This document shows, piece after piece, positions 3,449-63,933 of a stretch of DNA of 64,000 nt. The notes below the pieces were generated by a model. That model saw only the letters and a list, made by a program, of their open reading frames with translations. It was not told where the DNA came from and ran no database searches. Position numbers and translations under genes: made by a program. The stretch spans positions 10,036,261 to 10,100,260 of the forward strand of contig NC_081212.1 of NCBI RefSeq assembly GCF_902713425.1. Reading direction: 5' to 3'. Within the stretch, counting starts at the first letter, position 1. Each line of letters starts with the position of its first letter. The stretch is from Acipenser ruthenus (Eukaryota).

Positions 3449-3799
3449 TATTAAACAAAGTACAGCAGTCCCTCACTACACCAGACCAATTTATTTTAAA
3501 TGTACAAGCCATTACATACAATCAACTTTCTTTTTATTTGTAAAAAACAATAGACTTCAAATTCAGAATGTTGCGTTTCAAATCATTGGAGTCCATCAGC
3601 ATTTCTGAGAGCTTCTCACCATTCCGTTCGACTGCAGCTAGTTTAAACTCTGTAGAGTATGAGTTTATATTCCCTCCGTTAATCATGCACTGTACTTCAT
3701 TGTAGTGATTTAGTAGCTACTTGTATCTGTTCAGTTTTTGTTTTCATCCTGTTTTGGTGTCAGTATAACAATAGTTTGTTTGCCTTCTGATTTGTATAG

Positions 3800-3895
3800 G
3801 TAAGAAAAGCAGCACTGAAGTCCTTTGTCATTGACCTCAGCAAGGAGTACTCCATCGTGACTCAATACACAAGCTTTGTAGCAATTGAAAAAAGG
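3800..3895 (+). CDS. Host-gene exon, 96 nt, VRKAALKSFVIDLSKEYSIVTQYTSFVAIEKR (resembles post-vWA motif of VIT/vWA proteins)
   Basis: Pyrimidine tract + tatag acceptor; donor AAAAGG|gtaagt; multiple of 3. Confidence 0.45.
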
Positions 3896-5961: not shown

Positions 5962-6087
5962 GGTGAGAATGAAACAACAGAAGGGATTGATGCAGTGACT
6001 ACAGATGAACGGATTGCAGAGGAGGATGTGGACTTTTTACCTTATTTAACATGGGAAAGAGCAGAGGACGACTTTGGCGAGTCCTTG
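5962..6087 (+). CDS. Host-gene exon, 126 nt, GENETTEGIDAVTTDERIAEEDVDFLPYLTWERAEDDFGESL
   Basis: Acceptor ttctctgtttag|G; donor CTTG|gtatgt; multiple of 3. Confidence 0.45.
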
Positions 6088-6282
6088 GTATGTTATTGTT
6101 TTAATTGCAGTCCACTGTGTAGTTTATTATTAATGCTAATCTTTGAAGCTAGTTTGAATGTATGCTTGTGAACAGGATGGCTCAGGCCTGGAAACACACA
6201 GACAACAGTCTTGGTGAGTGAAAAGCTGCTGCACAGAATTCTTATCAATAAAAAGTTTAAACAGAAAACAAAACACTTGCCC

Positions 6283-6775
6283 AAAACAAGACGGCACGGC
6301 GGCCAAAACAGACAGACACTAAACAAACACGGTGAGACAAACCCAAAACAAGTAACGTGTTGATTTAAAATTATTGTCATTCTTTTTAGTTCTCTTTACC
6401 TCCCGATTCCCATTCTTTCCTCCCCGTACACCCAACCCAGAGTAAGTGATTCGTGCCTATACATACATACATACATACATACATACATACATACATACAT
6501 CTGTGCCGGGACTCAATTACTAATTAATCATTCACTTGAATCCCGGGATGTGAACTATTTTGTGCAATCTCCGTGCCCACATACTAATAGACACTTTATC
6601 TGCACATGAAGTGATTGTGCAATCCCTGTGCCTAAATACAAATATACATTCTAAATAACTTGTGCTACATAGCCCAATTTATACCCCGTGCACCAATATA
6701 CATAAACCAACAATAACATACCGCAAACATAAAACACAAAATATGCATAGAGACGGGGCACCTTGCCACATATCT
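6283..6775. repeat. Copy 1 of a locally duplicated ~0.5-kb segment containing a (CATA)n microsatellite at 6463-6500
   Basis: Colinear near-identical match to 7460-7579 + 8050-8375. Confidence 0.7.
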
Positions 6776-6779
6776 TCCC

Positions 6780-7440
6780 CCCATAAAAACCCAACTGTCC
6801 CGGTCATTGTCCTGGGCCTGGAACAGAGGCATCACTGGGCCCATGGGCAGCAATGCTGTCAGCGGAAATGCTGACTGAGGCAAGGCTGGCTCCTTCAGCC
6901 AGGGCAATCCTGGCAGCGGAAATGCTATGCTCTTGACAACACTGGCAGCAGAAATGCTGACAGTGGAGCGAGGTCCACCTCCCGTGGCACCACTGGCAGT
7001 GGAAAGGCTGCCAGTGGCAATGCTGGTAGCTGCAAGGCTGGCTCCTCCAGCCCAAGTGTTTCTGGCAGCAGACATGCTGGCGGTGTAGGCTCGGCAGCCC
7101 CAAGCGATGCAGGCTTTGCAGGCTCGGGCAGGAGTTGATCCTTGGGAGGCAACGCAGTAGCTGATCCTTGAGAGGTAGCTTTAGCTCCTCTTGTGGTTGT
7201 GAGGGGAGCAACAGGTAGTCTCGCTCTGGTGCTGGAGGTGGGAGCAGCTCTTCTTCCTCTGGCGGCGAAGGCGGGAGCAGCGGGTAGTCTTCCTCTGGCA
7301 GTGGAGGTGAGAACAGCAGGTAGTTTCCCTGTATCACTGGGGACTGGTGCAGCTCTCCCTTGGTCGTGGGGGACTGATGTGGCTCTCCCTGTGTCGCGGG
7401 GGACTGATGCGGCTCTCTGGTGCGGTTCGCTAGTAGTGGT
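6780..7440. repeat. Complex GC-rich minisatellite with ~30-36-bp units (ctggcagcRgaaatgctg...; ggcggcgaaggcgggagcagcgggtagtcttcctct; ggggactgatgYggctctccctgtgtcgcg)
   Basis: Visible tandem periodicity; generates repetitive minus-strand ORFs (REPHQSPATQGEPHQSPTTKG...). Confidence 0.75.
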
Positions 7441-7459
7441 TGCACCACCAAAACACTTC

Positions 7460-7576
7460 TCCCAAAACAAAATGGCATGGTGGCCAAAACAGACAGACAC
7501 TAAACAAACACGGTGAGACAAACCCAAAACAAGTAACGTGTTGATTTGAAATCAGCACGAATAGCAATTGTAATTC

Positions 7577-22429: not shown

Positions 22430-24790
22430 TGTATTACAATGTACGTCACCTTATTCATGAACTGAATGTTTATATTTATGATTTTATGAAGATTACCAAA
22501 AGTAAGAAATGGTCTGCACTGGAAAATGTAAAGCAGCATACACATTCTAACTCTGATCAGAACATCACAAAAGAAAGTACCAGTGCTGAACAATCAATTT
22601 TGTTCAAGGGACTAAGATTTGTACCAACAAAAAAGTAGCTGATGAATTCACAACCATCAATGATATGCAACATTCCCCCCCCCCCCCCCCCCCCCGTCTG
22701 TGTCTACATGCCCACTTCACAGAAACTGATCCTAATAACTCAACACTACTCCCCTTACTAGTTCCATGCATACCGATATTTTTCATCGATACAAATCAAA
22801 CTAAACGATCTAGGCCATCCAATCGTATCAGTCTGTTCCTGTCCCACAGAACTGATCTCCAAATTCCTTGTTGAATCACTGCCCGCCTATGTTAAAGACT
22901 CTACACATTTTCTTAAACAATTGGATAATTTCAAACAGCACCCTTGTGATAATATTATTCTTTTTACAATGGACATTAAAAGCCTCTACACTGTTATACC
23001 AAACAATGAAGGGTTAATTGCAATGAAACACTTTCTTGATGAATGGATAGTGAAAGAACCTCCAACAGATATCCTTCTGAGACTGGCTGAACTTGTGCTC
23101 ACATTTGAATTGTTTTTCCTTTGATGGTAATTTTTACACTGAAGTGTAAGCATGGGAACTAAAATGGGACCATCTTATGCTTGTCTTTTTGTGGGAACAG
23201 TTGAAAACAAATTTTTACAGCAATACAATGGAAACACACCTAAACTATATCTGAAGTACATTGACGACATCTTTGGAATTTTCACCAACTCCAGTGAGGA
23301 TTTAAAACAGTACATTCAGTCGGAAATTAGTGTGTTTTTTGGAAATTGTGGCTTTCCGGACAAGATCATCACTAAAGCTATATCCCGCATTGCAAATATA
23401 AATAGAAAAAATGCTTTATATAATAACAATATCCAACACACAGATGATAGAATCCCTCTGGTCCTCGCTTACCACCCGACCAACAGAAAGATACAGACAA
23501 TTGTGCAAAGAGACTTTACAACAAGACCCATCTACAGCGCCTCTTTAAGACTCCCCCCTTGATGTCATATAGAAGAGACAAGAATATAAGAGAATATGTG
23601 GTACACAGTGCTATTCGTCCTTCTGGGGAACCTTTGAAAGGCACATATCCATGTAATAGATCACGATGTAATACCTGTAAATACATTCATTCTGAAACGG
23701 ATTAGAGGCATTACATCTTCATTCAACATTTATGAACATTTTACATGTACCTCTAAAGTAGTGGTTCTTAACCTTTACTGCAGCCTGCACCCCTTTGGTT
23801 CTCAAAATATGTTCGCGCACCCCTTATCAAAAATCGTTGAAGTACGTCTGTTCTTTAAACTTAAGATACATCATAACTATAGAATGAAAGAGATAGACAT
23901 ATTTATTTTAATTTCACAGTAAAATTAAGAATATATGAAAAATTACACACTTTTTTTTTACCGCTCAGTGACTCTTCTGCTGTTGGGGGGCCTATACACT
24001 TTTAAATGCATATTAAATGTATGTAAAATAGTTGTGTTATTACTCACCACAAATAATAGTACAGTAGGCACACAGAAATACACAAGTACTACCCAGAGAT
24101 GTTGCAGAGTTTTGCTGTGGAAGTAAACTGTAACCGACACGCTAACAGTTAGCAGCTAACTGAATTCAATCAAAGCCGCGGCGCTGCCACATCTGCATAT
24201 GCGTCACGAAATGCAACGTGGCTGTACACTATTTTGTAGCAAGATAATTTCACTACAATTAGCTTAAACTTGAAAAATGTATTGTTTGTATATTACAGTA
24301 ATTGTTAAATGTATAATATTAATAAATACAAAGGTTTGATGAAACAAAGTAGTTGTACTTGCGTGCCTGTGCTTAATTTGTGTTCGATGATTTACCCTCT
24401 AAAAAAATCTGGCATGTCTCGCACCCCGAGAAAGGGCATCTCGCATCCCCAGGGGGTGCGTGCACCCCAGGTTAAGAACCACTGCTCTAAAAGGAATAGT
24501 ATACTGCATTATCTGCAAGAAATGCAACAAATTATATATTGGGGAAAACTAAAAGAAGTTTAGCAGACCGGTTTGTAGAGCACTTAAGAAGCATTCACAT
24601 TAACACCACTGCATATCCAGTAGCCCATCACTTCAACAGTGATGATCACACTGCTGAAGACATCACAGTCTGTGTGATCAATCAGTGCTATGGAACAAAT
24701 GTTGCTCGGAAACAAAAGGAACGAGAGTTTATCTTCAAACTGGGAACTTTGGAACCCCTGGGAATGAACATTCTATTCCTATAATCAAGA
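22430..24790 (+). mobile_element. Penelope-like element: N-terminal LFKGLRFVPT region, RT (FTMDIKSLYTVIP; GPSYACLFVG; YIDDIFGIF), CX2C linker, GIY-YIG endonuclease (GIVYCIICKKCNKLYIGETKRSLADRFVEHLRSIH...HHFNS). Frameshifted, with a (C)23 tract at 22676-22700
   Basis: RT motifs A-C followed by GIY-YIG on the same strand; interrupted by a MITE. Confidence 0.6.
23759..24484. mobile_element. hAT-type MITE (726 bp) with 15-bp TIRs TAGTGGTTCTTAACC / GGTTAAGAACCACTG and an 8-bp TSD CTCTAAAG/CTCTAAAA, inserted inside the PLE endonuclease region
   Basis: The PLE reading frame (FTCTSK|...|GIVYCIICKK) is restored once the element plus one TSD copy is removed. Confidence 0.65.
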
Positions 24791-27137: not shown

Positions 27138-28743
27138 CACTACCGGTCAAAAGTTTTAGAACACCTCCATTTTTCCAGTTTTTATTGAAATTTACACAGT
27201 TTAATGTCTCAATGTACTCTGAAATTAAAGCATAGAACAAATAAACAATTGGAGATAAATCATGGAATCGTTTTGTTTAACAAAATTTAATCTAAATTTT
27301 TGACTCAAAAGTAGCCACCTTTTGCAGATATAATGGCCGAACACACTCGTGGCATTCTTTCTACAATGGAAATCAAATATTGTTCGGAAAGTTCTTCCCA
27401 ACACTGTTGCAGAAGTTCCCACAAATGTGTTGCACTTGTAGGTTGCTTTGCTTTCACCCTTCTGTCCAGTTCATCCCAGACCAGCTCGATGGAGTTTAAG
27501 TCTGGAGACTGTGCTGGCCATTCCATGATTTGAAGCCTACCGTCTTGTTCTTTTCTTCTAAGGTAGTTCTGACATAGCCTGGAGGTATGTTTTGGGTCAT
27601 TATCTTGCTGTAGGAAGAACCCCTGACCAACTAGGCATATAGCAGAGGGTATTGCATGGCGCTGTAAAATGCTGTGGTAGCAGTTTTGGTTCAGGGTGCC
27701 ACTCACTCTGTGCAAGTCGCCGACTCTGGATCCAGCAAAAAAGAGCCCCAGACCATCATGCTTCCTCCTCCATATTTGACAGTTGGTGTCACACACCGAG
27801 GAACCATCCTTTCGCCTACTTGATGGCGTACAAAAACCCTGCGTGATGAACCGAAGATTTCAAATTTTGATTCCAGTCTTCAGTAGTCCACTGGCGGTGC
27901 TTCATGGCCCAGGCAAGCCTCTTTCTTATTTTGCCATCTTAGCAATGGCTTTCTTACTGCCACTCGACCTGTCAAACCTGCAGCTCGAAGTCTTCTCTTC
28001 ACAGTTGAAACTGAGACTTGCTTACTTCGACCAGTGTTGAGCTGTGCTTGAAGCTGTTGTCCTGTGAGCCACCTATCACACAAGCTGTTGACTCTCAGAA
28101 ACTTGTCTTCTGATTCTGTTGTGGCTTTGGGTCTGCCAGACCTCTTCCTGTCAGAGTTTCCTCCAGTTTCCAAGTGCCTTTTGATGGTGTAGGAAACTGT
28201 ACTCACTGACACCTTGGCTTTCTTTGCAATTTCTCTAAAGGGAAGACCTAAACTTTTAAGGGTTATAATGGTCTGTCTGTCTTCCTTTGTTAATTGCCTT
28301 TTTCTTGCCATTATGAGTGCAATATACTACTTCTTGCAGTACAATACTGTCCAAATAATGCTTAAGAGGGTGTAGTAACACAGTCTGTTCCAACACTGCT
28401 TTTATACAGACAGAGGGTTTGTAAGTAATCAACAAAAGTTGGGACACCTGTAGGAATTGTTAGCATCAACTTTCAAAGCTTAATTTACTTCCATTGCTGC
28501 AGAACAGCTGTAAGTTGTTAACCCATTACTTGTTCCCTGAAAAAGGCCTTTTTGTATAACTCTGAAATGTACATTATTTTTCAGTTTTTGGTAACCTAAA
28601 CTTTTTTTTTTTAACCTCTGGCAGTTTACCGCTTACCTTTGTACCATTTCAGGTTATTCACTGGACTTGAACTGCTTAAATTTCAATACAAACTGGAAAA
28701 ATGGGGGTGTTCTAAAACTTTTGACCGGTAGTGTATGTGTGTG
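27138..28743 (-). mobile_element. Tc1-like DNA transposon (1606 bp) with TIRs CACTACCGGTCAAAAGTTTTAGAACAC... and TA TSDs at 27136-27137 and 28744-28745
   Basis: Terminal inverted repeats read directly; internal transposase on minus strand. Confidence 0.85.
27305..28311 (-). pseudogene. Tc1 transposase, frameshifted (HTH ORF 27880..28311 and DDE ORF 27305..27796 with [15 protein letters not shown])
   Basis: Two ORFs in different frames covering the DNA-binding and DD34E catalytic domains. Confidence 0.85.
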
Positions 28744-32027: not shown

Positions 32028-33653
<1,626 letters not shown>

Positions 33654-34847: not shown

Positions 34848-35978
34848 CTACAACCCCATGCCTTCCCGAGAAAAAAAATCTGCGTTTTGATGCAGTTTCC
34901 CCGCTCGGTGAACTACCCTGAAGGCATAGGGCTGCAAGGCCAAGTACCACCGCGTGATTCTGGCGTTGCTATCTTTCATTCGGTGAAGCCATGCTAAGGG
35001 GGCATGATCTGTAACAAGGGTGAAGTGTCGCCCCAGGAGGTAGTACCGGAGTGACTCGACTGCCCATTTTACTGCGAGACACTCCTTCTCGATGGTACTG
35101 TAGTTTTTCTCGCGGGGAAGGAGCTTCCTGCTGATGTACAGGACCGGGTGCTCGCTTCCCCGAACCTCCTGAGACAACACTGCCCCGAGACCTGTCTCTG
35201 ACGCATCCGTCTGCAGGGTAAACCTCTTACCGAAATCCGGGCTGCATAGCACTGGCTTGCTACACAACCTCCGCTTCAAGGCGAGAAAGGCCCTCTGGCA
35301 CAGCTCCGTCCACTGAACCGTATTTGGGGCAGCCTTCCGGGTGAGGTCTGTCAAGGGAGCAGCGAGCGTGGCGAAGCTCGGGATGAACTTTCTATAATAG
35401 CCCGCTAGTCCCAAGAAAGAGCGCACCTGGGTTTTAGTCGTAGGGACCGGCCAGTCAGCCAAGGCTTTCACCTTAGCAATCAGCGGTCTGATCTGGCCAC
35501 CCCCTACTCGATACCCCAAATACTCCGACTCACTCTTCCCAATGGCACATTTCTTTGGGTTAGCAGTGAGCCCCGCCTCCCGCAAGGATTGCAGCACCGC
35601 CGCTACCTTACACAGATGACTCGGCCAGTCCTCACTGTGGATAACCACGTCATCTATGTAAGCAGCGGCGTACTGCTGATGGGGCTGTAAAATGTGATCC
35701 ATCATCCGCTGGAAAGTGGCAGGGGCTCCGTGCAACCCAAAGGGCATGGTCCTAAATTGGTACAACCCGAAGGGAGTCGAAAACGCCGTCCTCTCTTTAG
35801 ATTCCGGGGTCAGGGGTATCTGCCAGTACCCCTTCGTTAAATCCAGTGTCGTCATAAAATGAGCGGTGCCTGTCGCTGGACCCACAGCCGAGGACCCGGG
35901 GCCAGACACTCCAGGAAGCGCTCCACCACCACCATCTCCACCAACCTGGCTTTGGTGTTTACGTCCGGGTTCAGCCAA
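34848..35978 (-). CDS. Truncated pol: RT domains 3-7 (FMTTLDLTKGYWQIPL; YIDDVVIH), RNase H (LQTDASETGLGAVL) and the first integrase zinc-finger residues (HQNADFFSR), then stop. Protease, RT domains 1-2 and integrase are deleted
   Basis: 376-aa ORF; motif order as in Ty3/gypsy. Confidence 0.75.
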   Translation of the reverse strand: MAEPGRKHQSQVGGDGGGGALPGVSGPGSSAVGPATGTAHFMTTLDLTKGYWQIPLTPESKERTAFSTPFGLYQFRTMPFGLHGAPATFQRMMDHILQPHQQYAAAYIDDVVIHSEDWPSHLCKVAAVLQSLREAGLTANPKKCAIGKSESEYLGYRVGGGQIRPLIAKVKALADWPVPTTKTQVRSFLGLAGYYRKFIPSFATLAAPLTDLTRKAAPNTVQWTELCQRAFLALKRRLCSKPVLCSPDFGKRFTLQTDASETGLGAVLSQEVRGSEHPVLYISRKLLPREKNYSTIEKECLAVKWAVESLRYYLLGRHFTLVTDHAPLAWLHRMKDSNARITRWYLALQPYAFRVVHRAGKLHQNADFFSREGMGL

Positions 35979-36397
35979 CCTAGGGCGTAATCTTTCAGGC
36001 GGTGGGCAATGGTTCGGGGGTGCTCCTCTGCCGCAAACTGTTCCCCCCGGAATTTTTTCCGATACCCCTCGGGCGTGGCCCCCACGCGATTAAGGATGAC
36101 CGCCTTCAGAGTTGGGTAATCCATCATAGCCTCCGGGGACAGTGTCCTCGCCGCTGCTTGCGCCTCACCCGTGAGCTGAGGCAGTAGGCAGCTAGCCCAC
36201 TGCTCTGGAGCCCACCCGGCCGAGGTCGCCATGGCCTCAAACACCTCCAAGTAGGCTTCTGGTCGATCCTCGGCCGTCATTTTAGTAGGTCTTTGCAACC
36301 GGGGGTCTGGGGCTGTTGATCTAGCCGCCCCCTGCACCGCAGCGGTGAGAGTCTGGCGCAGGAGGTCCATCAGGGCAGCAAACTGCGTGGCATCCAT
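35852..36397 (-). CDS. gag (capsid-like: LKDYALGWLNPDVNTKARLVEMVVVERFLECLAPGPRLWVQR)
   Basis: 181-aa ORF adjacent to PBS/5' LTR. Confidence 0.6.
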   Translation of the reverse strand: MDATQFAALMDLLRQTLTAAVQGAARSTAPDPRLQRPTKMTAEDRPEAYLEVFEAMATSAGWAPEQWASCLLPQLTGEAQAAARTLSPEAMMDYPTLKAVILNRVGATPEGYRKKFRGEQFAAEEHPRTIAHRLKDYALGWLNPDVNTKARLVEMVVVERFLECLAPGPRLWVQRQAPLIL

Positions 36398-38748: not shown

Positions 38749-40374
38749 CAGTGCCTTGCGAAAGTATTCGGCCCCCTTGAACTTTGCGACCTTTTGCCAC
38801 ATTTCAGGCTTCAAACATAAGATATGAAACTGTAATTTTTTGTGAAGAATCAACAACAAGTGGGACACAATCATGAAGTGGAACGAAATTTATTGGATAT
38901 TTCAAACTTTAACAAATAAAAAACTGAAAAATTGGGCGTGCAAAATTATTCAGCCCCCTTAAGTTAATACTTTGTAGCGCCACCTTTTGCTGCGATTACA
39001 GCTGTAAGTCGCTTGGGGTATGTCTCTATCAGTTTTGCACATCAAGAGACTGAAATTTTTGCCCATTCCTCCTTGCAAAACAGCTCGAGCTCAGTGAGGT
39101 TGGATGGAGAGCATTTGTGAACAGCAGTTTTCAGTTCTTTCCACAGATTCTCGATTGGATTCAGGTCTGGACTTTGACTTGGCCATTCTAACACCTGGAT
39201 ATGTTTATTTGTGAACCATTCCATTGTAGATTTTGCTTTATGTTTTGGATCATTGTCTTGTTGGAAGACAAATCTCCGTCCCAGTCTCAGGTCTTTTGCA
39301 GACTCCATCAGGTTTTCTTCCAGAATGGTCCTGTATTTGGCTCCATCCATCTTCCCATCAATTTTAACCATCTTCCCTGTCCCTGCTGAAGAAAAGCAGG
39401 CCCAAACCATGATGAAACACCACCATGTTTGACAGTGGGGATGGTGTGTTCAGGGTGATGAGCTGTGTTGCTTTTACGCCAAACATAACGTTTTGCATTG
39501 TTGCCAAAAAGTTCGATTTTGGTTTCATCTGACCAGAGCACCTTCTTCCACATGTTTGGTGTGTCTCCCAGGTGGCTTGTGGCAAACTGTAAACGACACT
39601 TTTTATGGATATCTTTAAGAAATGGCTTTCTTCTTGCCACTCTTCCATAAAGGCCAGATTTGTGCAGTATACGACTGATTGTTGTCCTATGGACAGAGTC
39701 TCCCACCTCAGCTGTAGATCTCTGCAGTTCATCCAGAGTGATCATGGGCCTCTTGGCTGCATCTCTGATCAGTCTTCTCCTTGTATGAGCTGAAAGTTTA
39801 GAGGGACGGCCAGGTCTTGGTAGATTTGCAGTGGTCTGATACTCCTTCCATTTCAATATTATCGCTTGCACAGTGCTCCTTGGGATGTTTAAAGCTTGGG
39901 AAATCTTTTTGTATCCAAATCCGGCTTTAAACTTCTCCACAACAGTATCTCGGACCTGCCTGGTGTGTTCCTTGTTCTTCATGATGCTCTCTGCGCTTTA
40001 AACGGACCTCTGAGACTATCACAGTGCAGGTGCATTTATACGGAGACTTGATTACACACAGGTGGATTCTATTTAATCATCATTAGTCATTTAGGTCAAC
40101 ATTGGATCATTCAGAGATCCTCACTGAACTTCTGGAGAGAGTTTGCTGCACTGAAAGTAAAGGGGCTGAATAATTTTGCACGCCCAATTCTTCCGTTTTT
40201 TATTTGTTAAAAAAGTTTGAAATATCCAATAAATTTCGTTCCACTTCATGATTGTGTCCCACTTGTTGTTGATTCTTCACAAAAAATTACAGTTTCATAT
40301 CTTTATGTTTGAAGCCTGAAATGTGGCAAAAGGTCGCAAAGTTCAAGGGGGCCGAATACTTTCGCAAGGCACTG
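38749..40374 (-). mobile_element. Tc1-like DNA transposon (1626 bp) with long IR/DR-type TIRs (CAGTGCCTTGCGAAAGTATTCGGCCCCCTTGAACTTTGCGACC...) and TA TSDs at 38747-38748 and 40375-40376
   Basis: About 100-bp inverted termini; internal transposase. Confidence 0.85.
39042..39982 (-). pseudogene. Tc1 transposase with one frameshift (ORFs 39308..39982 and 39042..39410; [19 protein letters not shown])
   Basis: ORF track. Confidence 0.85.
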
Positions 40375-40639: not shown

Positions 40640-42960
40640 TAAAAGATGGTGAGGGGGGATGGTAACAGAAAGTAAAGATATGTTAAATGTTGCAAAAAGG
40701 TTTTATGAAGAGTTATATATAAAAAGAGAAACAGAAAGATGTGCAGGATTTGTTTTTGAGGAAACTTGAGTGTGAAATAAGGAAGATAATACAGAGATTT
40801 AATACAACTGGGAATTGAAGTGAAAGAGTTTTCTTCATTTGGAAAGGGAAAGGCTCCAGGTTTAGACCGACTTCACATTGAATTTTATCAAACCTTCTGG
40901 GAAGAAAGATGCCAGAAAGATAATTTAATGGAAATGCTCAATGAATGTTTTGAAATGAAAAGGTTAGGGAAATCTGAGAGAAGACCCGATTATTTTTAAA
41001 TAAAATTAAGGGGACAGAAATTATTTGAGAAATTGGAGGCCAACTACCCTGTTAAAATTGTGATTATAAAAATGAACCAAAATAGTAATGGGCAGACTGC
41101 AACAGGTAACAGGAGAATTAATTAATCCGGATCAAGTGTGTGGTGGCCCGGGAAGAACGGTAGTTGATAATTTGAATTTAATAAGAGATACGTGTTTATA
41201 CTCAGAGAGAGAGAGGGCATCCTGTGTGTTTAATTAATATTGATCAAGAGAAAGCATACGACAGGGTAGACCAGGAGTATTTATATAAAGTTTTTGAACG
41301 TATGGGCTTTAATCCAATTTTTATAGACTGGGTTAAAATGCTTTTTCAAGAGGTCAAAGGAAGGGTGGTGGTTAATGGGATGTTGTCACAGTCGTTCCAG
41401 GTGAACTCAGGCGTAAGACAGGGGTGTCCTTTGTCGCCTCTGTTATACATTTTTGCATTAGAACCTGTGCTGACAAAGATAAGGAGATCAAAGCAAATAA
41501 CAGGGGTAATAATCCCAGGTTCAGGGCAGCAAGAAGTAAAGGTACTAGCTTATATGGATGATTTATCTCTGATTTGCAGAGATGATTACTCTGTTAGTAA
41601 AGCTTTGGATATAATGAGGTTATTCGAGAGAGCTTCCGGTTCAAAAATTAATATAGAAAAGAGTCATGCCATGTGTATAGGGGATTGGAAAGAGAAAGAC
41701 AAAATTAAGAAAGAATTAACGGTGGAAGAGGAGGGGATAAAGGGTTTGGGTGTTATGTATGATACAGATATTAATGTTATAAAAGGAACTGGGTGGAAGT
41801 TTCAGGGAAACTTAAGAAAAAAATATTGTATTGGAAGTAGAGAAAATTGACATTAGAAGGGAAATTATCAATTTTAAAAATGATTTTGATGCCTACCCTG
41901 TTATATGTAGCAAGGGTGTTTCCACCTGACTTTGCATCAAGTAGAACAATAACTAGACACCTGTTTAAGTTTCTTTGGGGAGGGGGATTTGAGAAAGTGA
42001 AAAGAGAAACGGTAATGTTACGAAGAAATCGGGGGGGAAAGGTTTTCCAAATGTAATATTATTTATGGCCTCACTTTCTTTGTTACATGATTAAAGCAGT
42101 TTTTGAAATTAAGAAACAGTTTGCTAGGTTTTATTTTGGACAGTTAAGAAAAATGGGCTTAGTAAAACTAACATACAGTGCCCTATGGTGAGAAGATGCC
42201 ATTTGTATATAGGAAGACAATGAATTTTATTGTGCAAAATAATTTGTGTAAAAAGAGGCGGAAGCCAAGTGGACAGCAAAAGAATTAATGAAAAAGACGG
42301 AGTCTGGTGGAAAGCTATGCAGAATAGGTCTTGAGTGATGAGAGATCAGAAATAACATGGGAAAATGTTAACTATTCAGGATTAAATAGACAAAGATATT
42401 GCATGGTTAACAGCGCAGGCAATGCCCTGTAAAAAATTGTTATATAGAAGACAAATGTCAAAGACAAATACATGTGTTAGGACACAGAGTGCATGGCCAT
42501 AGAAACACTTCAGCATGTGTTTTATGAATGTGGGAAAGAGTAAATAAATGGTCACGAAAAATTAGAGATCAAGACATGTGTTAATTTGATATTGTATGGA
42601 CCGAAAAGGAGGGATTCAAAACAAATAATATAAAAAGGATGGATAATTATAAACTGTAAAAGCAGCATTGTGGATTGTGAGAAATCAAGAAATGTACAAA
42701 TCAAAAAATGACAAATGTGAATGAATTTTGTAAAATTGTAAAGATTTGAGATTATGTATGTCTAGACATTAATGCCACTGGGAAATCTACATTACATGGA
42801 AAATGAATTAATTCTGCGATTCATTTTTGTAAGTAGTGAGATAGAAGATACGTGAAAGAGTATTGTTAAAAGATTGTTTGTTATGAATGTGTTTGTTTTG
42901 TTATTGACTATAATTTGATTTAAATTTTTATAATAAACTTTGTAACTGAGGCATGATCCT
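40640..42960 (+). mobile_element. Non-LTR (LINE) retrotransposon remnant: degenerate 5' RT (GKAPGLDRLHIEFY), intact RT core ORF 41224..41850 (FQVNSGVRQGCPLSPLLY; YMDDLSL), thumb (FKFLWGGGFEKVKRETVMLRRNRGG)
   Basis: Motif order is that of an L1/Tx1-like LINE RT. Confidence 0.65.
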
Positions 42961-46929: not shown

Positions 46930-48954
46930 ATGGCTAAGGTACGAAGAAACTACAGTTCGTGCCCACGCATGTTAGAGGCATGTCGCCTTTACCGAGAGGG
47001 TACAGTTAGCAACCTGTCTGCACTGTCCAAGAAATTTGGAGTGGACAGGAAATCCTTGAGGCAGAGAGTGACGAATGACATAAGGGTTGAGGCACATCAG
47101 GGACATAAGACCTACCTCAGTACAGAGACAGAGAGGGAGATTTCAGGCTGTCTTCAGGTAGGATAGCCTATAGTAAGCTAAGTTAAACCATATAGCCTAG
47201 GTAAACAAGAATAGGAGTAAGGCAGTTGTTAGGCAGTGTGTAAGGAAATTAGGCACTAAATACCAATTAGAAATATGAATTGATTAAAGCCCTTGTTTTA
47301 AATTTACCAGTTTTCCCCCTCTATCATTTGTAGGTCCTTTGCCAGTGAGGTTGGGGCTTCACAAAATCAGATCTTTTAGATCTAGTTGAAGAGTATGTGA
47401 AGACTAAGGATATGGAGACCCCATTCACAAATGGGAGACCTGGACGGAAGTGGTTTGAGAGGTTTATGAGAGACCACCCAGAGCTTACAGTGCGAAAGTC
47501 TGAGCAGTTTCCAGAAGCAAGAGCCAAGGCATCTGTTGACTCATCAGTACATGCCCACTGGTTCAACCAAGTGCTTGGAAAGGCAATGGATGACACAAAG
47601 CTGCATGACAAACCACAAAATATATATATAATGTGGATGAAACAGGCTTTGACTGACCCCAGCTCTGAGAAGGTCCTAGCCCCTAAGGGCTTGAAAAATG
47701 TCTACCAAAACACAGGAGGGAGTGGTAGAGAGCAAATCACAGTGTGCATTACTGGGAATGCTGCAGGCCAGAGCCTACCCCCCTATGTAGTGTACAAAGG
47801 AAAAAACCTTTACAGCACCTGGTGTAAGGATGGTCCTGAATCGGCCAGGTATGCGGTGTCTGATCATGGGTGGATGGAGAGAGCACTATTTGAGGACTAC
47901 TTCCAAAACCTCTTCTTGAAAGAATCCTCAAAATGGTCTGACATGAGCTCTCCACGGATCCTCATTTTTGATGGCCACGCCTCCCACATCTCCCTGAGAA
48001 TTGCTGAAATGGCAAAAGAAAACAATGTGGTGCTCCTGCGACTCCCCTCTCACCTCACCCACATTCTGCAACCTTTGGACAAGGCAGTGTTTGGGGAGGT
48101 GAAGAGGCAGTGGAGAAAGAAACTACGATGTCACTCACGAGTCTCCAGGGACAAAATCAGGAAAGAAGATTTTCCTTCGAAGTTGAGTGATGTCTTGGAG
48201 ACAGCTATGAAGTCCGAGAACCTGAAGAGTGGCTTTGGGAGCACCGGGATTTATCCCTTGAACCCTGATCGAGTGAGCAGCGAGGTGACAGAGTTACACA
48301 CCATACACTGAAGTGGCTGCTGGCAATGCTGATTCACTGGAGGATCTTACCATACAACTGCCCCTTCTCAAAGCCATGCCAGCGAGGAGTACACCTGACA
48401 CCTTAGTTGTGTCTCCCCCAGCACAATCATGTTCATTACCCTTGCAGACATCTGCCAATGAGGAATCCATGTCCCAGATCATCCTGAGTGTAGAAACCAT
48501 CCCTGGTTCCAACTTTCTAAACATTACTAACATTGAAGTGGCAAGTCATCCACATGAGCAAATGTCAGCACCCCAGCCATCAACTTCAGCACAGTCAAGC
48601 TCGTCTGCCATTGACAAAGACACCATCAAGGATTTCTTTCTAAAACGAATCACACCACGCAATAAAGAAAACATCAAGAAGCAGAGAATCACAACCCTTA
48701 AATATGGGGAATCGCTGACATCTGCTCAAGCCATGGCCAGGCTTGCTGAGAATAAAAAGAAGAGAATGGCAAGAAATAAGAAAAAACAGGTCAAGAAAGG
48801 AAAGACGACAACACAGAAAAAAGGAGATGCGCCAAAACCAGTTGAACCAACTGAGGATGGCAGCAATGAAGATGCAAAATCACATGGCGATCCCCCCTTC
48901 ACCATCAAAAAAGATGTATACTATGCTGTAATGTTTACATCACCTGCAGCTTAA
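46930..48954 (+). pseudogene. pogo/Tigger-type transposase: psq-type HTH (46930..47160), 213-bp intron-like gap with GT..AG, HTH_Tc5 plus DDE_1 domain (47380..48311; DETG motif shifted to another frame at ~47625; ...ILIFDGHASH...LPSHLTHILQPLD), K/E-rich C-terminus (48313..48954)
   Basis: CENP-B/Tigger-type domain order; frameshift in the atatatata slip region; gap bounded by CAG|gtagga and ttttag|A. Confidence 0.6.
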
Positions 48955-50909
48955 TACATTGGAAGATCCATTAATGAGTCCACACCCCCTGAGGGAGAAA
49001 GATATGTGATGAAGTTTCTTAACAGAGGGCCAGACAACACATATTTTATGCCTCCAAGGGACAAAATTGAAGATGTGGAGAGAAGATTCATACTCTGCAA
49101 GGCAGAACTGGAGGGTGCTGGACCATTCCGCTTGAAGAACCATCATGAGATTGAAAGTCAATACAGAAATATGCTTAAAGCAATGAAATAGAGCAAGTCA
49201 AGATGTAGCCTAGAATGGCAAGTCAATGTTAATAAAAGCTGCCACAAAAGCAGAGATTCTGTAGTGCAAATGATAAAGAATGACTGTATTCTAAATGATA
49301 GATTAACCTTGTTCTTTTTCACTGGTTTGGAATACACTAACATGTTATAAGATGTTGCAAACCTGTGTTTTGTATGATGACCATTTTAAATGTTTTAGGC
49401 CGCTTGCATGATGTATTGAAATTACTTTTATGAATTGATTTTAACAGTTAACACTGTTTTCCTGTGAAGGAAATGTATTCAATAGACTTTTTAATGTTTT
49501 AGACCTATTAATTAAAATAGATTTATTGACAAAAATCATGTAGTGGGCTTATTTGGAACATACATGGGCTTAAATGGTACATCAGGTACCCATTAAGGCC
49601 AGTCGGGACTTTTCACTAATATATCTATTTTTTATTTTGAAAATATAAAAATGGAGTAATATAACTTCACATGAGAGATTAATCTTTCATTTTCTCATCA
49701 CTTCTCTTCCAGAAACCAGTGAATTATATCTTTAAAATGTCTCAACTTAGATTTTGGTGGGCTTAAAAAGGTACACATACCCTAGTCGCCGCTGGCAATT
49801 TTTGACAGTCTCACAGGAGTCTGCTATCATGTAGTTGAAAGAACAGAACAAATGTTGACGCTTTGACATTCTGGGTTTGGTTTTGTATTCTACTGATTGG
49901 GCACAACATTTGAGTTGATCTTTTTACTCTTTATAACATACAAGTGTATTTACAAGGTTAGGGGCCGTTTCTCCTGTTGTGTCAATTATATTACTATGCA
50001 GCTGGCAGGCATTCGGAACGCGCACGCTAACAACGCGTCATCTTTCATTTTACAAAACACGGGGCATTCGACACGGAGAAAACCTTCTAGACAACTACTA
50101 AAAGAGCTAAACATCAATTTGCCTCCCCAGCCATGTTAATAGATATCTGGCTTTTTTCCAGTAGCATTAAAGTTGTGGTGACACACAAAAAAGAAACATG
50201 GAAATCTGTTTTGGGGTTGGGGAGTTAACCTACCAAACAATTTACGCACATGAATATACTGTAACGGAACCTGGTAGGTAGGGAACAGTGGGAAGCACCA
50301 TGAAACAGCTATAATCAAAAAGGGATATCTTTTACTTTTAAAAGTATAAAAATGATCTGGGTAACACAGGCAAAGTGGACAATGGTAGAAAAACAATTAC
50401 AACAACCAACAAAAATGTTTGATCCAGTCAGTTCTCGTAGAACAAGTCAAATTAACTGAAGGCCTAACTGTAATATGGTAAATTACCATACATACAGCAA
50501 TTAACCAAACTTCAATATAAAGTAATCAAATATTACATTTAAAACCAATATGTGCAACTAAAATAAAACTTGTGTTGGTACACAAATTAATATTCAAATC
50601 GTGAGAAAAACCACACATTCAAAAGACAGCACTTCAATGCAAAACGATCACACACACATTAATTATAAACACAAGTTAGATTAATTGCTGTATGGATAAT
50701 TGGCAAAATAGCAACTCAATCACTAGGCACAATTGCAGAGTATCACCTAGCGGAGAGTGGCGTTTTTAATAAGTACCCAGTTTTGGTAGTCAGTTTACAA
50801 ATACAATACTATCAGTAATTCATAAACCATTCAGTGCAAATCAGCAGCAGTAAAAGTTGCATTTAAGCAAGCCCAATTATCAGGCATTTCAGCAGTACAT
50901 TTCAGCATA

Positions 50910-57595: not shown

Positions 57596-58865
57596 GTGTA
57601 ACGTAACCTGTCCTGGCTAGGTTGTGCTCTAACTGGATTGAAACAGGAGTAGCGTGTAGCTGCCACCACCTTTGGTTAACTGGGATGGTCCGGATAAATA
57701 ACCCCAGAAGTAGAATGTTATATAGTTATGGTAGCTAGGGAAAAGAGTGAGGCTCCTGGAAACAGCTAGAATCAAAAGGGATATCTTTACTTTTTAAAAA
57801 GGAGTATTTAAAAAAAAAAAAAAAAAAAAAAAAATTATATATACAATATGATCTGGGTATACAACTTAATACAGGCAAAATGGACAATGGTAGAAAAACA
57901 GTTACAACAACCAACAAAATGTTTGATCCAGTCAGTTCTCAGAACAAATCAATTACAATATATTACAGTTAGGCCTTCAGTATAATCATCATACAGCAAT
58001 AAACCAAAGCAATCAAATATTACATTTAAAACCAATATGTGCAACTAAACAAATCGAACTATTAAGTGTTGGTACACAACCAAAATTCAAATCTTAAAAA
58101 AAAACACCATACAATCAAAAGACAACGCTTCAATGCAACACGGTCACACACACTTCAATTATAACAAACACAAATAAGTTAGATTAATTGCTGTATGGAT
58201 AATTAGCAAAACAATAGCAACTCAATCACTAGGCACAATTGCAGAGTATCACCTAGCGGAGAGTGGCATTTAAGAAGTTCCCAGTTTTAGTAGTCAGTTT
58301 ACAAATACAATACTATCAGTAATTCATAAACCATTCAGTGCAAATCAGCAGCAGTAAACGTTTATCAGGAGTTCAGGGCATTTCAGCAGTACTTAACCCT
58401 GGTTATTTGTTTGAGAACAACGATAAATACACGGAGGTAGGTAACAGATTCAAATGTCCACAGTTACCAGTTTCATATTACACGTAACCCAGCAAAAAGA
58501 TACACAAGTGTAGCGCCCCCCTCCAAAACACCATTCGATACTTAACCAAGGATAACCCCCTCGGTTATCCCTAGAATTAAATTGACTACGCCAATTTGAA
58601 GCCAATAACAGGTTCTTTAAAAATCAAGACAGCTCAGTGTGTAAAGTGAGGACAAGGTATAAAAACAACAATAATTTTTTTTACACAGAATCACAGCTTT
58701 TACCTATAGCAGCAGATTTGATAGCAGCAACCTTTAAACTATAGCAGCAGATTTTTAACCAAGAGCGATCCCATCAGACCCTAAGCACTAGGATACTTTA
58801 AGCTAGATAACGTCACACCAACACTTCTAAGTAAAAAGATAACACTATGTAACATAATTTTTGTT

Positions 58866-60168
58866 CCTGGGTAGTAAGTGTTATTTCCTAATTGCTTATG
58901 CCTCAAAAGTATAGAAAATGGCTATTATTCCCCACAAACTTTGCTTTTGTGACCAGGAGTGATATTTTGAAATTTACCTATTTCCAATGAGAAAACGGGC
59001 GGATTTGTGTCTTTTCGTTCACATAAAGTCAGAAAAAAAAACATATGAATCCAAATTAACATGTATTTATACTAAAGTAATACAAAAATGACTACAAAAG
59101 ATTTAGAAGCGAGTAGTTTTTCGAGATTTACGATTATACTGTAAATCACTTTCACGAGTCAGCCCCCAAATGTAGTCTCCCATCATGTTCTCGTTATACT
59201 GTCCTTCACCGACAGCTCATCCAGGAGCCTCAAAGCCGTGCTGCTCCATAATGGTAACAAGTACCCATCTCTTCCCCTGGCTCACTCAGTGCACCTCAAA
59301 GAGGATTACAACAGCATCAAGACCTTGCTGGACGCCTTGAAGTATGAGGAGTACGGCTGGGACCCCGGGAAGGTGCTGATGCCACCACTGCACATCAAAT
59401 TGGGCCTTATGAAACAATTTGTCAGAGCTCTAGATAAGGAGTCGGCAGCCTTCAAGTACCTTCAAGACTTCTTCCCTAAGCTGTCCGAGGCAAAGGTCAA
59501 AGTCGGTGTCTTCGTCGGACCACAGATAAAGAAGATCCTGGCGTGCAATGAATTCCCCAAGAAGCTCACTAGTAAGGAGAAAGCGGTTTGGAACAGCTTT
59601 GTCGCAGTGGTTCGGGGCTTCCTGGGCAATCACAAGGCCGAAAACTATGTGGAGCTGGTTGAGACTCTGGTGAAGAACTACGGCACAATGGGCTGTAGGA
59701 TGTCCCTCAAAGTCCATATCCTTGATGCTCATCTTGATAAATTCAAGGAGAACATGGGAGCGTACTCGGAGGAGCAAGGCGAGCACTTCCACCAGGATAT
59801 ACTGGACTTTGAACGCCGCTACCAAGGACAGTATAATGAGAACATGATGGGAGACTACATTTGGGGGCTGATTCGTGAAAGTGATTTACAGTATAATCGT
59901 AAATCTCGAAAAACTACTCGCTTCTAAATCTTTTGTAGTCATTTTTGTATTACTTTAGTATAAATACATGTTAATTTGGATTCATATGTTGTTTTTTTCT
60001 GACTTTATGTGAACGAAAAGACACAAATTCGCCCGTTTTCTCATTGGAAATAGGTAAATTTCAAAATATCACTGTCCTGGTCACAAAAGCAAAGTTTGTG
60101 GGGAATAATAGCCATTTTCTATACTTTTGAGGCATAAGCAATTAGGAAATAACACTTACTACCCAGGA
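58866..60168. repeat. Large palindrome: ~350-bp inverted arms (58866-59215 is the reverse complement of 59820-60168) around ORF 59238..59927
   Basis: Near-perfect inverted match read directly; one arm contains the 3' coding end of the ORF. Confidence 0.8.
59238..59927 (+). pseudogene. C-terminal portion of a hAT (Charlie/Buster-like; ZBED5/FAM200/GTF2IRD2-like) transposase: ...LHIKLGLMKQFVRALDK...VGVFVGPQIKKIL...FLGNHKAENYVELVETLVKNY...SLKVHILDAHLDKFKENMGAYSEEQGEHFHQDILDFERRYQGQYNENMMGDYIWGL
   Basis: Motifs recalled from the hAT-Buster/Charlie C-terminal region; no N-terminal BED or DDE part present. Confidence 0.5.
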
Positions 60169-61234
60169 ACCAAAAAAAAAAAAAAGTGTTACACAGTGTA
60201 ATAATTCACAGCGCAATAACACTTAAATAACACCCTTCAAAGCAAATAGTGATTTCCACAAACACAATTCCAAACAATAAAATATCAAACCTTAAATAAC
60301 ACACTTTAAAAAAACTAATAATCAGTGATTTTCATAGAAAAACAGAAAACTTCATGCAACCTAAAAAATGCCTAATGCTTAAACCCTCCAATAGCCGCTA
60401 TTTTAGTTAATACACAGGTGGATAAAGTGCAAGTGTGCAATCAAAAGTTAACAGGCCTTTTATAACTATACATTGTAAACACATACACAATTACAGTTAG
60501 GATAATCAGGACAAAGACGCTACTCAGTCTAAACCAACCAATAACACAGAAAAGAAGTTCGTATGCAGCGCTCAAATATTACATCAGCATTCACAGGATC
60601 GTAATTACCAACTCAGAATACAGACAATGCACATTCTCTTTTTTAATCAACCCCATACAATTGCGACCGACGTCTAAGAGCACGGGGGATACTTCACTGA
60701 AACCACTCCAATATAGAGCGGACCAAACTATTCAATATGAATAGTAGTAGTTTACCATTAACTTCCAGCGCTTTAGCCAATTCACAGCGCCCCAGTATTA
60801 CTCTACAAAAGTTACAATCCTTACCAAACAGTAGTTCCCCGACCCGTGCTCTCAGCTCACAAATCTCTCAAACCCGGTCGCTCCCTGGCTGATTAACCCC
60901 ACCTGTTTTTATACAGCTGGCCCCATTACGAATTAGCACTGCAATTACTATGGAGACCAGTAGTCTCCCTGGGGTTTAAAGGGACAGTGCAACGGTAAAA
61001 ATGATAAATAAAAAAAATAAAAAATCACACAATAAAACTCACTTATTACATTCAAAAAATAAACAATACTTCCATTGCAGATCCGTTACACAAGCAAAAT
61101 ACAATAAAATAATAAATAAAATACAGAAAAAAAACTTCCCTTCAATGACAAGTCCAACCCAGCGCGCAGTTCGATGCAATTCGGTTAAATTCAACAGGCA
61201 GCACCGAACGCTGTCAGCGAATCCTCAGCAGCAA

Positions 61235-63108
61235 CCAGTGGCGACTCATGTGGCTTGAAAAACTGGTGGGGCACAGCCCACCCCCGCACCCCCCCCCCCC
61301 CAAAAAAAAAACTGTGCTCAAACCCGGATGCCCGATTTTAACCATTTTTATGTAAACATTAAGCTAGCTTTCTAACATTACCAGATCTTTCATCACAAAC
61401 AGTTTTACACCCGATTGTCACAATCTGTAAACAATACTTTACAGGCAAGGGTCTCTTATCGACAGACAGCTGCACCTGCACTAACCTGAGCGTTTGAAAT
61501 AGAAGAATCGTCACAATCTCGTGCTGTTAATAACATACAGAAGTCAGGTTTGGTTTCTGTTGATGTCTCTGGCGTTGGTGGTTTAGCTTTTTTGTTGTAG
61601 AAAAACTCCAAACGTAGCTGTTTTTTTGCCATTTTAACAGGGCTCAAATTCACTCAGTTTTTAGCACATGTTTTCGCTGACTGAAAAAGTGAACGTCTCA
61701 CACGAGAACAAGTATAACGGTGAAGGCTTGACACGCTTTGGTTATGTTATTAAGTTTTGAAAGTTTGAAATAAACTGCGCACTTACGTATTTTTAAATAA
61801 TAAACTCTGGCATCAGAGTCACAGTGGTGCAATTGGCAACCTGATTTCTTATTCATGCACTGACATTTTATTTTCGAAAAATAAAGAACAATCTTTTTTT
61901 TTTTAAGAGAAGATCCAATAACCAAATACACTGTTGTGGAAAAAAAAAAAAAAAATCAGTTTCCGATTAAAAACAAAAAAGGAAATAGAAAGCAAAGGAC
62001 TTGAACTTTTAACATGCGCATCAGATTTCAATTTCACATTATGATAATAAATAAAAATAACTAAATATAATTTTATTTGTACGTATGGTTGTTCATTTTT
62101 GTTAACTAACAGTTGGTGTTCAAAGCAAACCATTTTATTTAATCTCACAAATCCTGACTAATTTATTACCGTTTGACTGACGCAGGACTGTCTGTGGTAC
62201 CTAATCTTCTGGAGGTTCGGGGGAGGGGGTACTTGTGCACACAGTTGCATTAACTACATTGTAAAAAATGTACTAACAACTGATCCAACGAAAAACTTTG
62301 GTTGATTGACAGCAAATCCAGCTACTCGTTTTTATGGTATCGCACTGCACTGACATTCGCTAGCCTATCGGGCTTTGTTGAGCTGATGGACACGCTGTAG
62401 CCTAAACAAATAATCAGAATGAAAACGAATAGGTAACCGAACTCAGGAATTGAAACAGTTTTGACGTTTCTCTCTTAGCAGCGTCCAGAACTGTTTTCAT
62501 TCTAATTTATTTCTTTAGTTATTCAATTAATAATAGGTTGTACATTTACTACTCCATCTCCAAGACCTTGATAGACTTGGTTACCGTGCCTTGATGAAGC
62601 TGGCTGCTCAATCCGTGAAAAATGATAATTTTATTGGTAGGCTGGCCGCTGGAGAGGTCAGCTGGCAGTAAGATATGTCGAGAGGCGAGTGCATTCTACG
62701 TAAATACATAGGTTACTATTACATAGTAAATGTTCTCTACCCCATCTATGTGTGTAGTAGTAGCTAGGATACACAGCCTATACAGTAATCATAGCCTATA
62801 TGTTTCATGCATCTGTGTTTGGGGTTGAGCAAGTACAGCTTGCTTATGTATTCTCATTGGTTGATAGCAACGCGGTAAATAAAAAGTTCGCTCCGTGAGC
62901 GAAAAGAAAAATCAGCGCCGGCCGTGCCGCGTCCGCCCCGCGTCCTGTGTTAACACACAGGTAGACTATAATGGGAAGCTTTTCCCATTTCTTTATTTCT
63001 TATACAGGTTTCAGTGTGAACGATCCTAACGCAGTGGCTAAACCACTGCCTGGCAGAAATCTGGGGGGGGCACGTGACCAGGCGTGCCCCCCCCACGCGT
63101 CGCCACTG
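61235..63108. mobile_element. Non-autonomous hAT-like element (1874 bp) with TIRs CAGTGGCGAC / GTCGCCACTG and a perfect 8-bp TSD GCAGCAAC (61227-61234 and 63109-63116), inserted in the 5' LTR of gypsy element 2
   Basis: LTR copy 1 reads ...CAGCAGCAACAAAAACC... continuously at the homologous site. Confidence 0.8.
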
Positions 63109-63638
63109 GCAGCAACTAAAACCAAACGGGAGTGAAAACACAAAAATCAGCTTTCATAATCCATCCTCTACATTGCTTTTATCCAGTTTGTTTCCAATTA
63201 TTCAATAACAATGCCGTCATTGATCGTAATGCTCAGTCCAATTAAGGTTCCCAATGTTTCAATCAATGCGTGACTGAGCCGGCTGGCACGTCACAATATC
63301 ATGCAAATTATGTAACTACTTTTCAAAGGCAGTTCTAGTATTCAGACTGTAGTTGCAAAAATAATACAATATCTTTTGACTAGAGTTCATCTTTTAAAAA
63401 CAACTACTTTGCCAACAGAAGAAAAAAAGGCTAACAGAAGACGGTTTCGCTCCGTCGACCTCTGGGTTATAAGGCTCAGCACGCTTCCGCTGCGCCACTC
63501 TGATACAGCTTTTTCTTAAATGAAATACCCATCAATAAAATAAAATAAAATAAATCAATTCTCAGTGCAACTTTTTGACGCAGTCTGCTGCTGGACTCAC
63601 AGAGAGCGGAGACCGCAACAAAAAAATGAACAAGCACA

Positions 63639-63711
63639 TGTTTCCACCCGGTTTCGAACCGGGGACCGTTCGCGTGTTAGGCGAACGTGATAACCACTAC
63701 ACTATGGAAAC
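63639..63711 (-). tRNA. tRNA-Val (anticodon AAC), 73 nt
   Basis: Minus strand reads GTTTCCATAGTGTAGTGGTTATCACGTTCGCCTAACACGCGAACGGTCCCCGGTTCGAAACCGGGTGGAAACA; 7-bp acceptor stem; T7 terminator ~16 nt downstream. Confidence 0.9.
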
Positions 63712-63841: not shown

Positions 63842-63914
63842 GTTTCCATAGTGTAGTGGTTATCACGTTCGCCTCACACGCGAAAGGTCCCCGGTTCGAA
63901 ACCGGGTGGAAACA
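63842..63914 (+). tRNA. tRNA-Val (anticodon CAC), 73 nt
   Basis: GTTTCCATAGTGTAGTGGTTATCACGTTCGCCTCACACGCGAAAGGTCCCCGGTTCGAAACCGGGTGGAAACA; T7 run at 63934-63940. Confidence 0.9.
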
Positions 63915-63933
63915 CAGCACGGCATATTTTTTT

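Follow-up and report, generated by a model that had tools for sequence, protein, structure and literature searches.

An apparent Merrow (Chapaev3) transposon copy in Acipenser ruthenus with an inverted duplication of its own 3' end

The window analysed here is a 64,000-nucleotide stretch of the Acipenser ruthenus genome (NCBI RefSeq assembly GCF_902713425.1, contig NC_081212.1, positions 10,036,261 to 10,100,260, forward strand). It contains a 1356-bp element at 58843-60198, which begins with CACTATG at 58843, ends with CACAGTG at 60192-60198, and has TAA on both sides. Within it is an open reading frame (ORF) of 229 amino acids at 59238-59927 that opens with GTG under the bacterial start rule; the first ORF with an ATG start is 59379-59927 (182 amino acids). 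The initial annotation described the structure as a palindromic duplication of a hAT transposase 3' end. The 229-amino-acid ORF that it reported does exist, with its GTG start, and the ORF is indeed a transposase fragment. Its motifs are those of Chapaev3, and we conclude with high confidence that the element is a copy of the Chapaev3 transposon Merrow with the anatomy given in Table 1.

The element has a pair of inverted arms. A repeat search reported three abutting inverted pairs of 98-99% identity each, which BLASTN joined into one arm pair. In this match, 58858-59206 is 98.0% identical to 60175-59824 over 352 columns, with 4 mismatches and 2 gap openings (E 9e-173). The match is far above chance level. 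It agrees with the near-perfect arms of about 350 bp first noted, for which about 80% identity had been set as the lower limit; the observed value is well above that. When aligned globally from the tips, the left arm is 58843-59206 (364 nt) and the right arm is 60198-59824 (375 nt). The outermost 23-34 nt were missed by the first match because the arms differ there in T-run length and at one A/G position. A palindrome does lie at 58866-60168, the extent originally given, but those limits are slightly too narrow, and the true ends are 58843 and 60198. It was also correct that one arm is the reverse complement of the ORF 3' end and its downstream sequence, since the right arm spans the last 104 nt of the ORF and sequence beyond it. 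Within the arms there are three substitutions, every one of them G/A at a CpG site, and two indels, one of 2 nt and one of 1 nt. With CpG-type substitutions and small indels between them, the arms look like two aged, distinct genomic sequences that diverged after duplication, and not like an assembly fold-back. BLASTN of the window found no further copies of the element in its 64 kb.

The tips of the element are CACTATGTAACA and CACTGTGTAACA (tip consensus CACTRTG). The 8-mers that flank it are aaagataa and taataatt, and the target-site duplication (TSD) is the 3-bp TAA only. Chapaev3 elements are described as ending in CAC/GTG, duplicating TWA at targets between A and T, and encoding a transposase with C(2)C, LH, H(4)H, and DDE (PMC4079192). 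Merrow is the Repbase Chapaev3-1_PM lineage, with the members Merrow_PM, Merrow_LC, and Merrow_AT (Zhang et al. 2014, PMC4079192; GenBank KF965286 and DR976541 for Merrow_LC and Merrow_AT). In the supplement of that paper, the Merrow_PM ends are printed as GATTA followed by CACTGTGTAACAA-TTTT and, on the other side, TGTTACATAGTG followed by TTA, and a Merrow_LC end is printed as CACTATGTAACA. The window tips, CACT[A/G]TGTAACA, are identical to these published Merrow_PM and Merrow_LC ends. Therefore, the window element resembles Merrow as described there both in its tips (CACT[A/G]TGTAACA...TGTTACA[C/T]AGTG) and in its TWA duplication between A and T.

The transposase points to the same family. 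Lamprey Merrow is 2451-2455 bp long, with two exons encoding 78+484 = 562 amino acids, and Merrow is about 98% identical at the nucleotide level between lampreys and white sturgeon or paddlefish (PMC4079192). We assembled a composite full-length element from L006, a locus 96-99% identical to the window element, and the 3' part of the window element itself. The composite is 2459 bp, with exons encoding 70+492 = 562 amino acids. Its totals agree with the published length and protein size, which supports the Merrow identity; the split differs from the published one because the exon boundary was taken from RefSeq model P0010. Family alignments A1 and A2 conserve PCxLC, PPLHIKLG, H-x4-H, D (in FIDSS), D (in GDFK), and E (in EEQGERF). 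The likeness to Merrow thus extends to a two-exon transposase of 562 amino acids with C(2)C, LH, H(4)H, and DDE motifs, a full length of about 2.45 kb, and occurrence in lampreys and in sturgeon and paddlefish (PMC4079192). The same source already records Merrow from sturgeon and paddlefish, and the window copy is a structural variant of this known family.

The assignment of the ORF to Buster/Charlie-type hAT transposases was wrong. The element has a 3-bp TAA duplication, CACTRTG tips, and terminal inverted repeats (TIRs) of about 143 bp. hAT elements, which generate TSDs of 8 bp, cannot account for a 3-bp TWA duplication next to CAC...GTG tips. No hAT domain in Pfam, including PF05699 and BED, was found for the window ORF at E<=10 or for five longer homologues at E<=1, and neither the window ORF nor the family profile had a sequence match to Hermes or another hAT in the PDB. 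The homology to hAT that had been proposed for checking was therefore found in neither Pfam nor the PDB. Also, the motif read as Buster/Charlie, GE[H/R]FHQDI...RYQG...DYIW, belongs to the Chapaev3 (Merrow) transposase. hAT elements such as Buster/Charlie and Hermes do share a DDE transposase, an RNase H-like core, and an alpha-helical insertion with this family, but their 8-bp TSD, short TIRs, and hAT dimerisation domain are all absent from the window element. A hAT transposase fragment within a fold-back structure is refuted by TSD length, by the tips, and by the absence of hAT domains, and we consider it virtually excluded.

Fold comparison also separated the family from hAT. The highest values were 16.3 for the RAG1 core (327 residues aligned) and 16.1 for amphioxus RAG1L, with lower values for P element transposase (10.9), Transib (9.2), and Hermes (8.5). 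The closest solved fold is therefore not a hAT (Hermes 8.5 versus RAG1 core 16.3). This RAG1-first ranking agrees with Kapitonov and Koonin (2015), who grouped Chapaev and Chapaev3 with Transib and RAG1. RAG1, RAG1L, and Transib differ from the window element in that profile-versus-PDB searches found no sequence similarity between them and the family, and in their 5-bp TSD versus the 3-bp TWA here. Yuan and Wessler, as cited in PMC4079192, placed Chapaev in the CMC megafamily. Under either classification, CMC or Transib/RAG1-related, the element is not a hAT.

Some other assignments were also considered. PIF/Harbinger was suggested by the TWA duplication but rejected: there was no DDE_Tnp_4 match, the tips are CAC...GTG, and Chapaev3 motifs are present. 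Plain CACTA/EnSpm was considered for the CACTA/G tips and 3-bp TSD and was refined to Chapaev3 by the literature match; we take GDFKMVAFLMGLQGGFTKFPCYLC to resemble the plant CACTA motif. Foldback (FB-type) elements have long arms of tandem subrepeats that are unrelated to a coding element's own 3' end. No tandem repeats were found in 58843-60198, and the arms consist of the Merrow TIR and Merrow 3' sequence. Miniature inverted-repeat transposable elements are short (under about 600-800 bp), non-coding, homogeneous, and present in high copy number. At 1356 bp, with a 182/229-amino-acid ORF remnant, the window element exceeds the size limit of that class.

The family identity, the anatomy, the breakpoints, and the junction microhomologies are shown by the sequences, and the structural features are collected in Table 1. 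In contrast to full-length Merrow, the window copy is only 1356 bp long. Its 5' part is short of 1131 bp, which held the 5' untranslated region (UTR), the first exon (where the Chapa zinc finger is encoded), the intron, and some 200 codons at the start of exon 2, including a helix-turn-helix (HTH)-like region. A further 62 codons are gone from inside exon 2. About 220 bp from the element's own 3' end, inverted, stands where the 1131 bp were lost. This inverted segment lengthens the inverted repeat from about 143 bp to about 364 bp, so that it reaches 104 nt into coding sequence. Both ancestral TIRs and both tips have been kept.

Table 1. Features of the Merrow copy in window coordinates, and correspondence to the full-length composite
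Feature	Position	Strand	Evidence
Left TSD TAA, preceded by A	58840-58842	.	Direct reading; A-TWA-T pattern seen at 8 elements, as published for Chapaev3
5' TIR, ancestral length ~143 bp; tip CACTATGTAACA, 5' type	58843-58986	+	98% to composite nt 1-147; L006/L083 alignment; published ends
Inverted duplicate of 3' subterminal region and last 104 nt of coding sequence	58987-59206	-	Reverse complement of 59824-60046
Junction 1, microhomology CTT; inverted 3' segment to exon 2 at the ..FIDSSSRSLK codons	59204-59206	.	Comparison of window, right-arm reverse complement, and L006
Transposase exon 2 remnant	59207-59927	+	ORF, homologue alignments, composite
Junction 2, 186-nt in-frame deletion (62 codons, composite nt 1438-1620), microhomology GGA	59360-59362	.	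Composite, L006
Source of the inverted duplicate: last 104 coding nt, stop codon (59925-59927), 3' non-coding sequence	59824-60046	+	BLASTN, tip alignment
3' TIR; tip reverse complement CACTGTGTAACAC, then long T-run, 3' type	60047-60198	-	Alignments; published Merrow ends
Right TSD TAA, followed by T	60199-60201	.	Direct reading; as published for Chapaev3
Composite nt 1-147	58843-58986	forward	
Composite nt 2085-2436	59206-58858	inverted	
Composite nt 1279-1437	59204-59362	forward	
Composite nt 1621-2459	59360-60198	forward	

Calling the ORF the C-terminal third of a transposase was too simple. It corresponds to residues ~272-562 of the 562-amino-acid protein minus 62 internal residues, and alignment to homologues places this gap between ..KYEEYGW and DPGKV... 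The ORF keeps the LH (PPLHIKLG) and H(4)H (VHILDAH) motifs and the E region (EEQGEHFHQD). Missing from it are the Chapa zinc finger, the HTH region, the second D (GDFKM), and C(2)C, and the first D is upstream of any start codon, outside the ORF. The second catalytic D (Asp) and the C(2)C zinc ligands were removed by the 186-nt deletion. With these deleted and the first D upstream of the start codons, the window ORF cannot encode an active transposase. Judged by its sequence, the window copy is a decayed, non-autonomous, internally rearranged Merrow. It has kept both ends, and at best an autonomous Merrow could mobilise it in trans. The alternatives offered in the initial annotation, a hairpin-forming rearrangement product or an unusual non-autonomous derivative, were right in so far as this is a rearranged or non-autonomous derivative.

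A database search with the window ORF returned 767 homologues, 120 of which were listed. The best among the matches listed were A. ruthenus proteins (95-96% identity). Homologues from the lamprey Lethenteron reissneri (P0005, P0028, and P0101) were 84-90% identical, and others were from piranha, frogs, a tunicate, a fly, a moth, and a horseshoe crab. Such a scattered host distribution is typical of horizontally transferred DNA transposons. No Pfam domain was found in the ORF-homologous region among the 120 matches listed of the 767. Pfam found nothing above any cut-off in the window ORF, and neither Pfam nor NCBIfam gave a meaningful match to the ORF or to longer homologues; GRAS and Nop52 profile matches were present in these scans but were below cut-off. 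PDB sequence searches with the window ORF and with a 45-sequence family profile matched no transposase. Exact-protein look-ups of the window ORF and of the RefSeq sturgeon proteins P0010 and P0012 found no record. None of the database proteins among the matches listed shares the 62-amino-acid deletion. Compared with a copy from Acipenser sinensis (L083), there were 6 synonymous and 10 non-synonymous differences, which are too few for a selection test and are compatible with neutral decay.

Named homologues among the 120 matches listed are labelled "uncharacterized" or "hypothetical." Some gene models contain part of Merrow joined to a host gene, namely PEX7 isoform X1 of A. ruthenus (P0052) and an Ig-domain protein model of Serrasalmus (P0033). 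The lamprey model P0005 starts with the peptide ..SLTAHPGASKPCCSIMVTST.., which is the window +1-frame ORF at 59185-59340 (+). Therefore, the lamprey copy is near-identical in DNA but frameshifted, and this fits the published lamprey-sturgeon horizontal transfer.

The ends and flanks were compared with those of other loci. A metagenome scan provided 80 further loci, many of which are contigs of 2.5-2.9 kb and therefore element-sized. L001, an ENA contig, contains a related 2.6-kb element with TIRs of about 160 bp, and its alignment to the window runs past 58866-60168. The window element and L001 share the ends CACTATGTAACA... and ...TGTTACACAGTG, with TAA flanking both sides. CAC...GTG termini are present in the window element and 10 other loci, and where tips could be recognised among the other loci, they were CACTG(G/T)..CAACA. 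The flanks are TAA/TAA at the window element, L001, L014, L038, and L054 and TTA/TTA at L005 and L013. Of 8 other elements with clean ends, 7 have the TWA duplication between A and T, as the window element does; L026 has TTA and TAA. An A stands outside the left repeat and a T outside the right repeat at every element with an intact flank (all but L077 and L079). Without the element, the insertion site in the window would read AAAAAGA-TAA-TAATTCAC.

In L006 and L083, the 5' and 3' ends resemble each other for about 143 bp, after which comes a normal 5' region. The extension to about 364 bp is therefore not common to these closest full-length copies. Neither junction 1 nor junction 2 of the window copy was present in any of the 83 fetched loci, with up to 3 mismatches allowed, and term searches in the available portion of the Merrow paper (PMC4079192) found no derivative like the window copy. 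However, L083 has an inverted filler of its own. The L083 element (L083:2483-4822, A. sinensis VSKV01008299.1) contains a 145-bp inverted segment at L083:3462-3606, which was copied from its own 3' region at L083 4510-4654, the equivalent of window 59888-60032. The filler replaces composite nt 981-1244 (264 bp of exon 2), and all of its junctions differ from those of the window copy. On the evidence of these sequences, the 3' end was copied in inverted orientation on at least two occasions in sturgeon-lineage Merrow. A 5' fragment of another Merrow copy lies just upstream of the L083 element (L083 1538-2261), and the compound has TTA as its outer flanks and TAA as its inner left flank, which suggests a nested or recombined structure.

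Long TIRs as such are a feature of the family. TIR length varies widely among Chapaev3 lineages, being 74-231 bp in most and 675 bp in L005, and is very labile in Chapaev3. The 675-bp arms of L005 belong to an element at 2998-7563 of that locus. A divergent Chapaev3 lineage with about 47% identity is represented by L054 (2334-4499), in which the TIR is 231 bp long and extends into the final 34 nt of the transposase ORF.

How could the inverted segment have arisen? At its left tip the window element has the 5' type (CACTATG with a short T-run), and at its right tip it has the 3' type. Beyond the TIR, however, the left-arm sequence is of the 3' type. This places the switch point within the near-identical TIR. 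We infer that the segment probably originated by template switching, with the following order of events and repair pathway. During repair synthesis after excision (abortive gap repair or synthesis-dependent strand annealing), or during replication at a stalled fork, a nascent strand that had already copied the 5' TIR would re-anneal to the near-identical, oppositely oriented 3' TIR. The strand would then copy inward for about 220 nt from the 3' TIR, and a 3-nt microhomology would allow it to be linked to the strand arriving from the opposite end. The 186-nt deletion may be a second, similar microhomology-mediated slip. An abortive-gap-repair origin is classic for Ds and KP. Ds (from Ac), KP (from P), and Pack-TIRs are like the window copy in that both ends are kept and internal deletions have junction microhomology and filler from a nearby template. 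The window copy differs from them in that its filler is its own 3' end, inverted and contiguous with the TIR, so that the TIR is longer and nothing foreign was captured. Microhomology-guided template switching has been documented in TIR elements (PMC8277862). Such a rearrangement is an ordinary kind of transposon decay.

Other histories were considered. The long palindrome might be a family feature, if a non-autonomous Merrow subfamily with TIRs of about 360 bp arose once, was amplified, and then transposed to this site. The intact tips and TAA duplication make the element mobilisable in principle, and the wide variation in Chapaev3 TIR length, including the L054 TIR that overlaps an ORF, would accommodate such a subfamily. 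However, the 64-kb window holds no second copy, neither junction is in the 83 fetched loci, and the 62-amino-acid deletion is in no protein among the matches listed. The window, the 83 loci, and the protein set sample sturgeon genomes very poorly, so this counter-evidence is weak, and we regard an amplified subfamily as possible though doubtful. Descent from an L083-like intermediate, in which a 145-bp inverted filler was followed by repeat extension and 5' loss, is distinctly less probable. It would explain why two sturgeon-lineage copies have fillers from overlapping 3' source segments and why their right junctions are only 34 bp apart (composite nt 1245 versus 1279). Against this, the window filler is longer than that of L083 on both sides, all four junctions differ, and at least two extra template switches plus a deletion would be needed, so that one event starting from a full-length copy is the more parsimonious account.

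Palindromic joins are known from long reads, and L083 illustrates how complex Merrow regions can look in assemblies, so a fold-back chimeric read or a mis-joined repeat was also considered. Such an artefact would yield identical arms and gives no reason for intact ends. In fact, three CpG-type substitutions, two internal indels, and T-run length distinguish the arms, the two tips are of different types (5' on the left, 3' on the right), and a correct A-TAA...TAA-T duplication bounds the element. An assembly artefact is therefore very improbable. Some points do weigh against a template switch in a Merrow copy as we have described it. The nucleotide comparison with published Merrow is confined to the terminal ~13-17 nt printed in the supplement. 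L026, a clean-ended element, has unequal flanks (TTA versus TAA). The repair pathway was deduced from 3-nt microhomologies, each of which would occur by chance about 1 time in 64.

Mu killer is an inverted-duplication transposon derivative that triggers silencing in maize. Like it and the maize Ac/Ds composite insertions (bioRxiv 10.1101/2020.01.07.897926), the window copy has an inverted duplication that includes putatively transcribed transposase sequence. Unlike them, it is in a vertebrate host and not in a plant. A read-through transcript of the element is predicted to fold into a stem of about 360 bp, with a minimum free energy of -803 kcal/mol. There is a slim chance that the inverted duplication acts as a "killer" locus that silences autonomous Merrow in the sturgeon germ line. 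If so, a transcribed double-stranded RNA stem of about 360 bp would include the final 104 nt of Merrow coding sequence together with the 3' UTR, and its RNA could feed small-RNA silencing, as for Mu killer and the Ac/Ds insertions. Given at least two separate origins of inverted 3' fillers (in the window and L083), such self-silencing loci may form readily.

Otherwise, the window copy has little importance beyond annotation, where the superfamily call is corrected from hAT to Chapaev3/Merrow. It does document one clear example of a long TIR that supplied the homology for a probable template switch, by which the repeat was extended into coding sequence, and it is one more data point for the already published lamprey-sturgeon horizontal transfer of Merrow. 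It also draws attention to a transposase, that of Chapaev3, without a Pfam or NCBIfam model, and to hundreds of family proteins in the database without a Pfam domain.

The surroundings of the element have features of their own. Flanking sequences at 57750-58250, 60250-60500, and 61000-61250 are A-rich and G-poor on the + strand (A 0.44-0.47, G ~0.10), a skew that the element itself lacks and that could come from an old strand-biased repeat or an edited retroelement. A small tRNA cluster lies at 63432-63504 (-), 63639-63711 (-), and 63842-63915 (+). It includes two divergent tRNA-Val genes (anticodons AAC and CAC), which explain inverted repeat I4, and a third, weaker tRNA match from Rfam only. 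A U7 snRNA (small nuclear RNA) match at 50060-50116 (-) scored 35.6 bits versus an Rfam gathering score of 34 bits. Other transposon remnants are dense in the window (23152-23562, 27305-28311, 32821-33438, 34848-36397, 39308-39982, 41224-41850, and 47397-48954). Judged only by ORF translations, they include Tc1-like transposase fragments, long terminal repeat retrotransposon gag and reverse transcriptase sequences, reverse transcriptase fragments of the long interspersed nuclear element type, and a pogo/Tigger-like DDE ORF.
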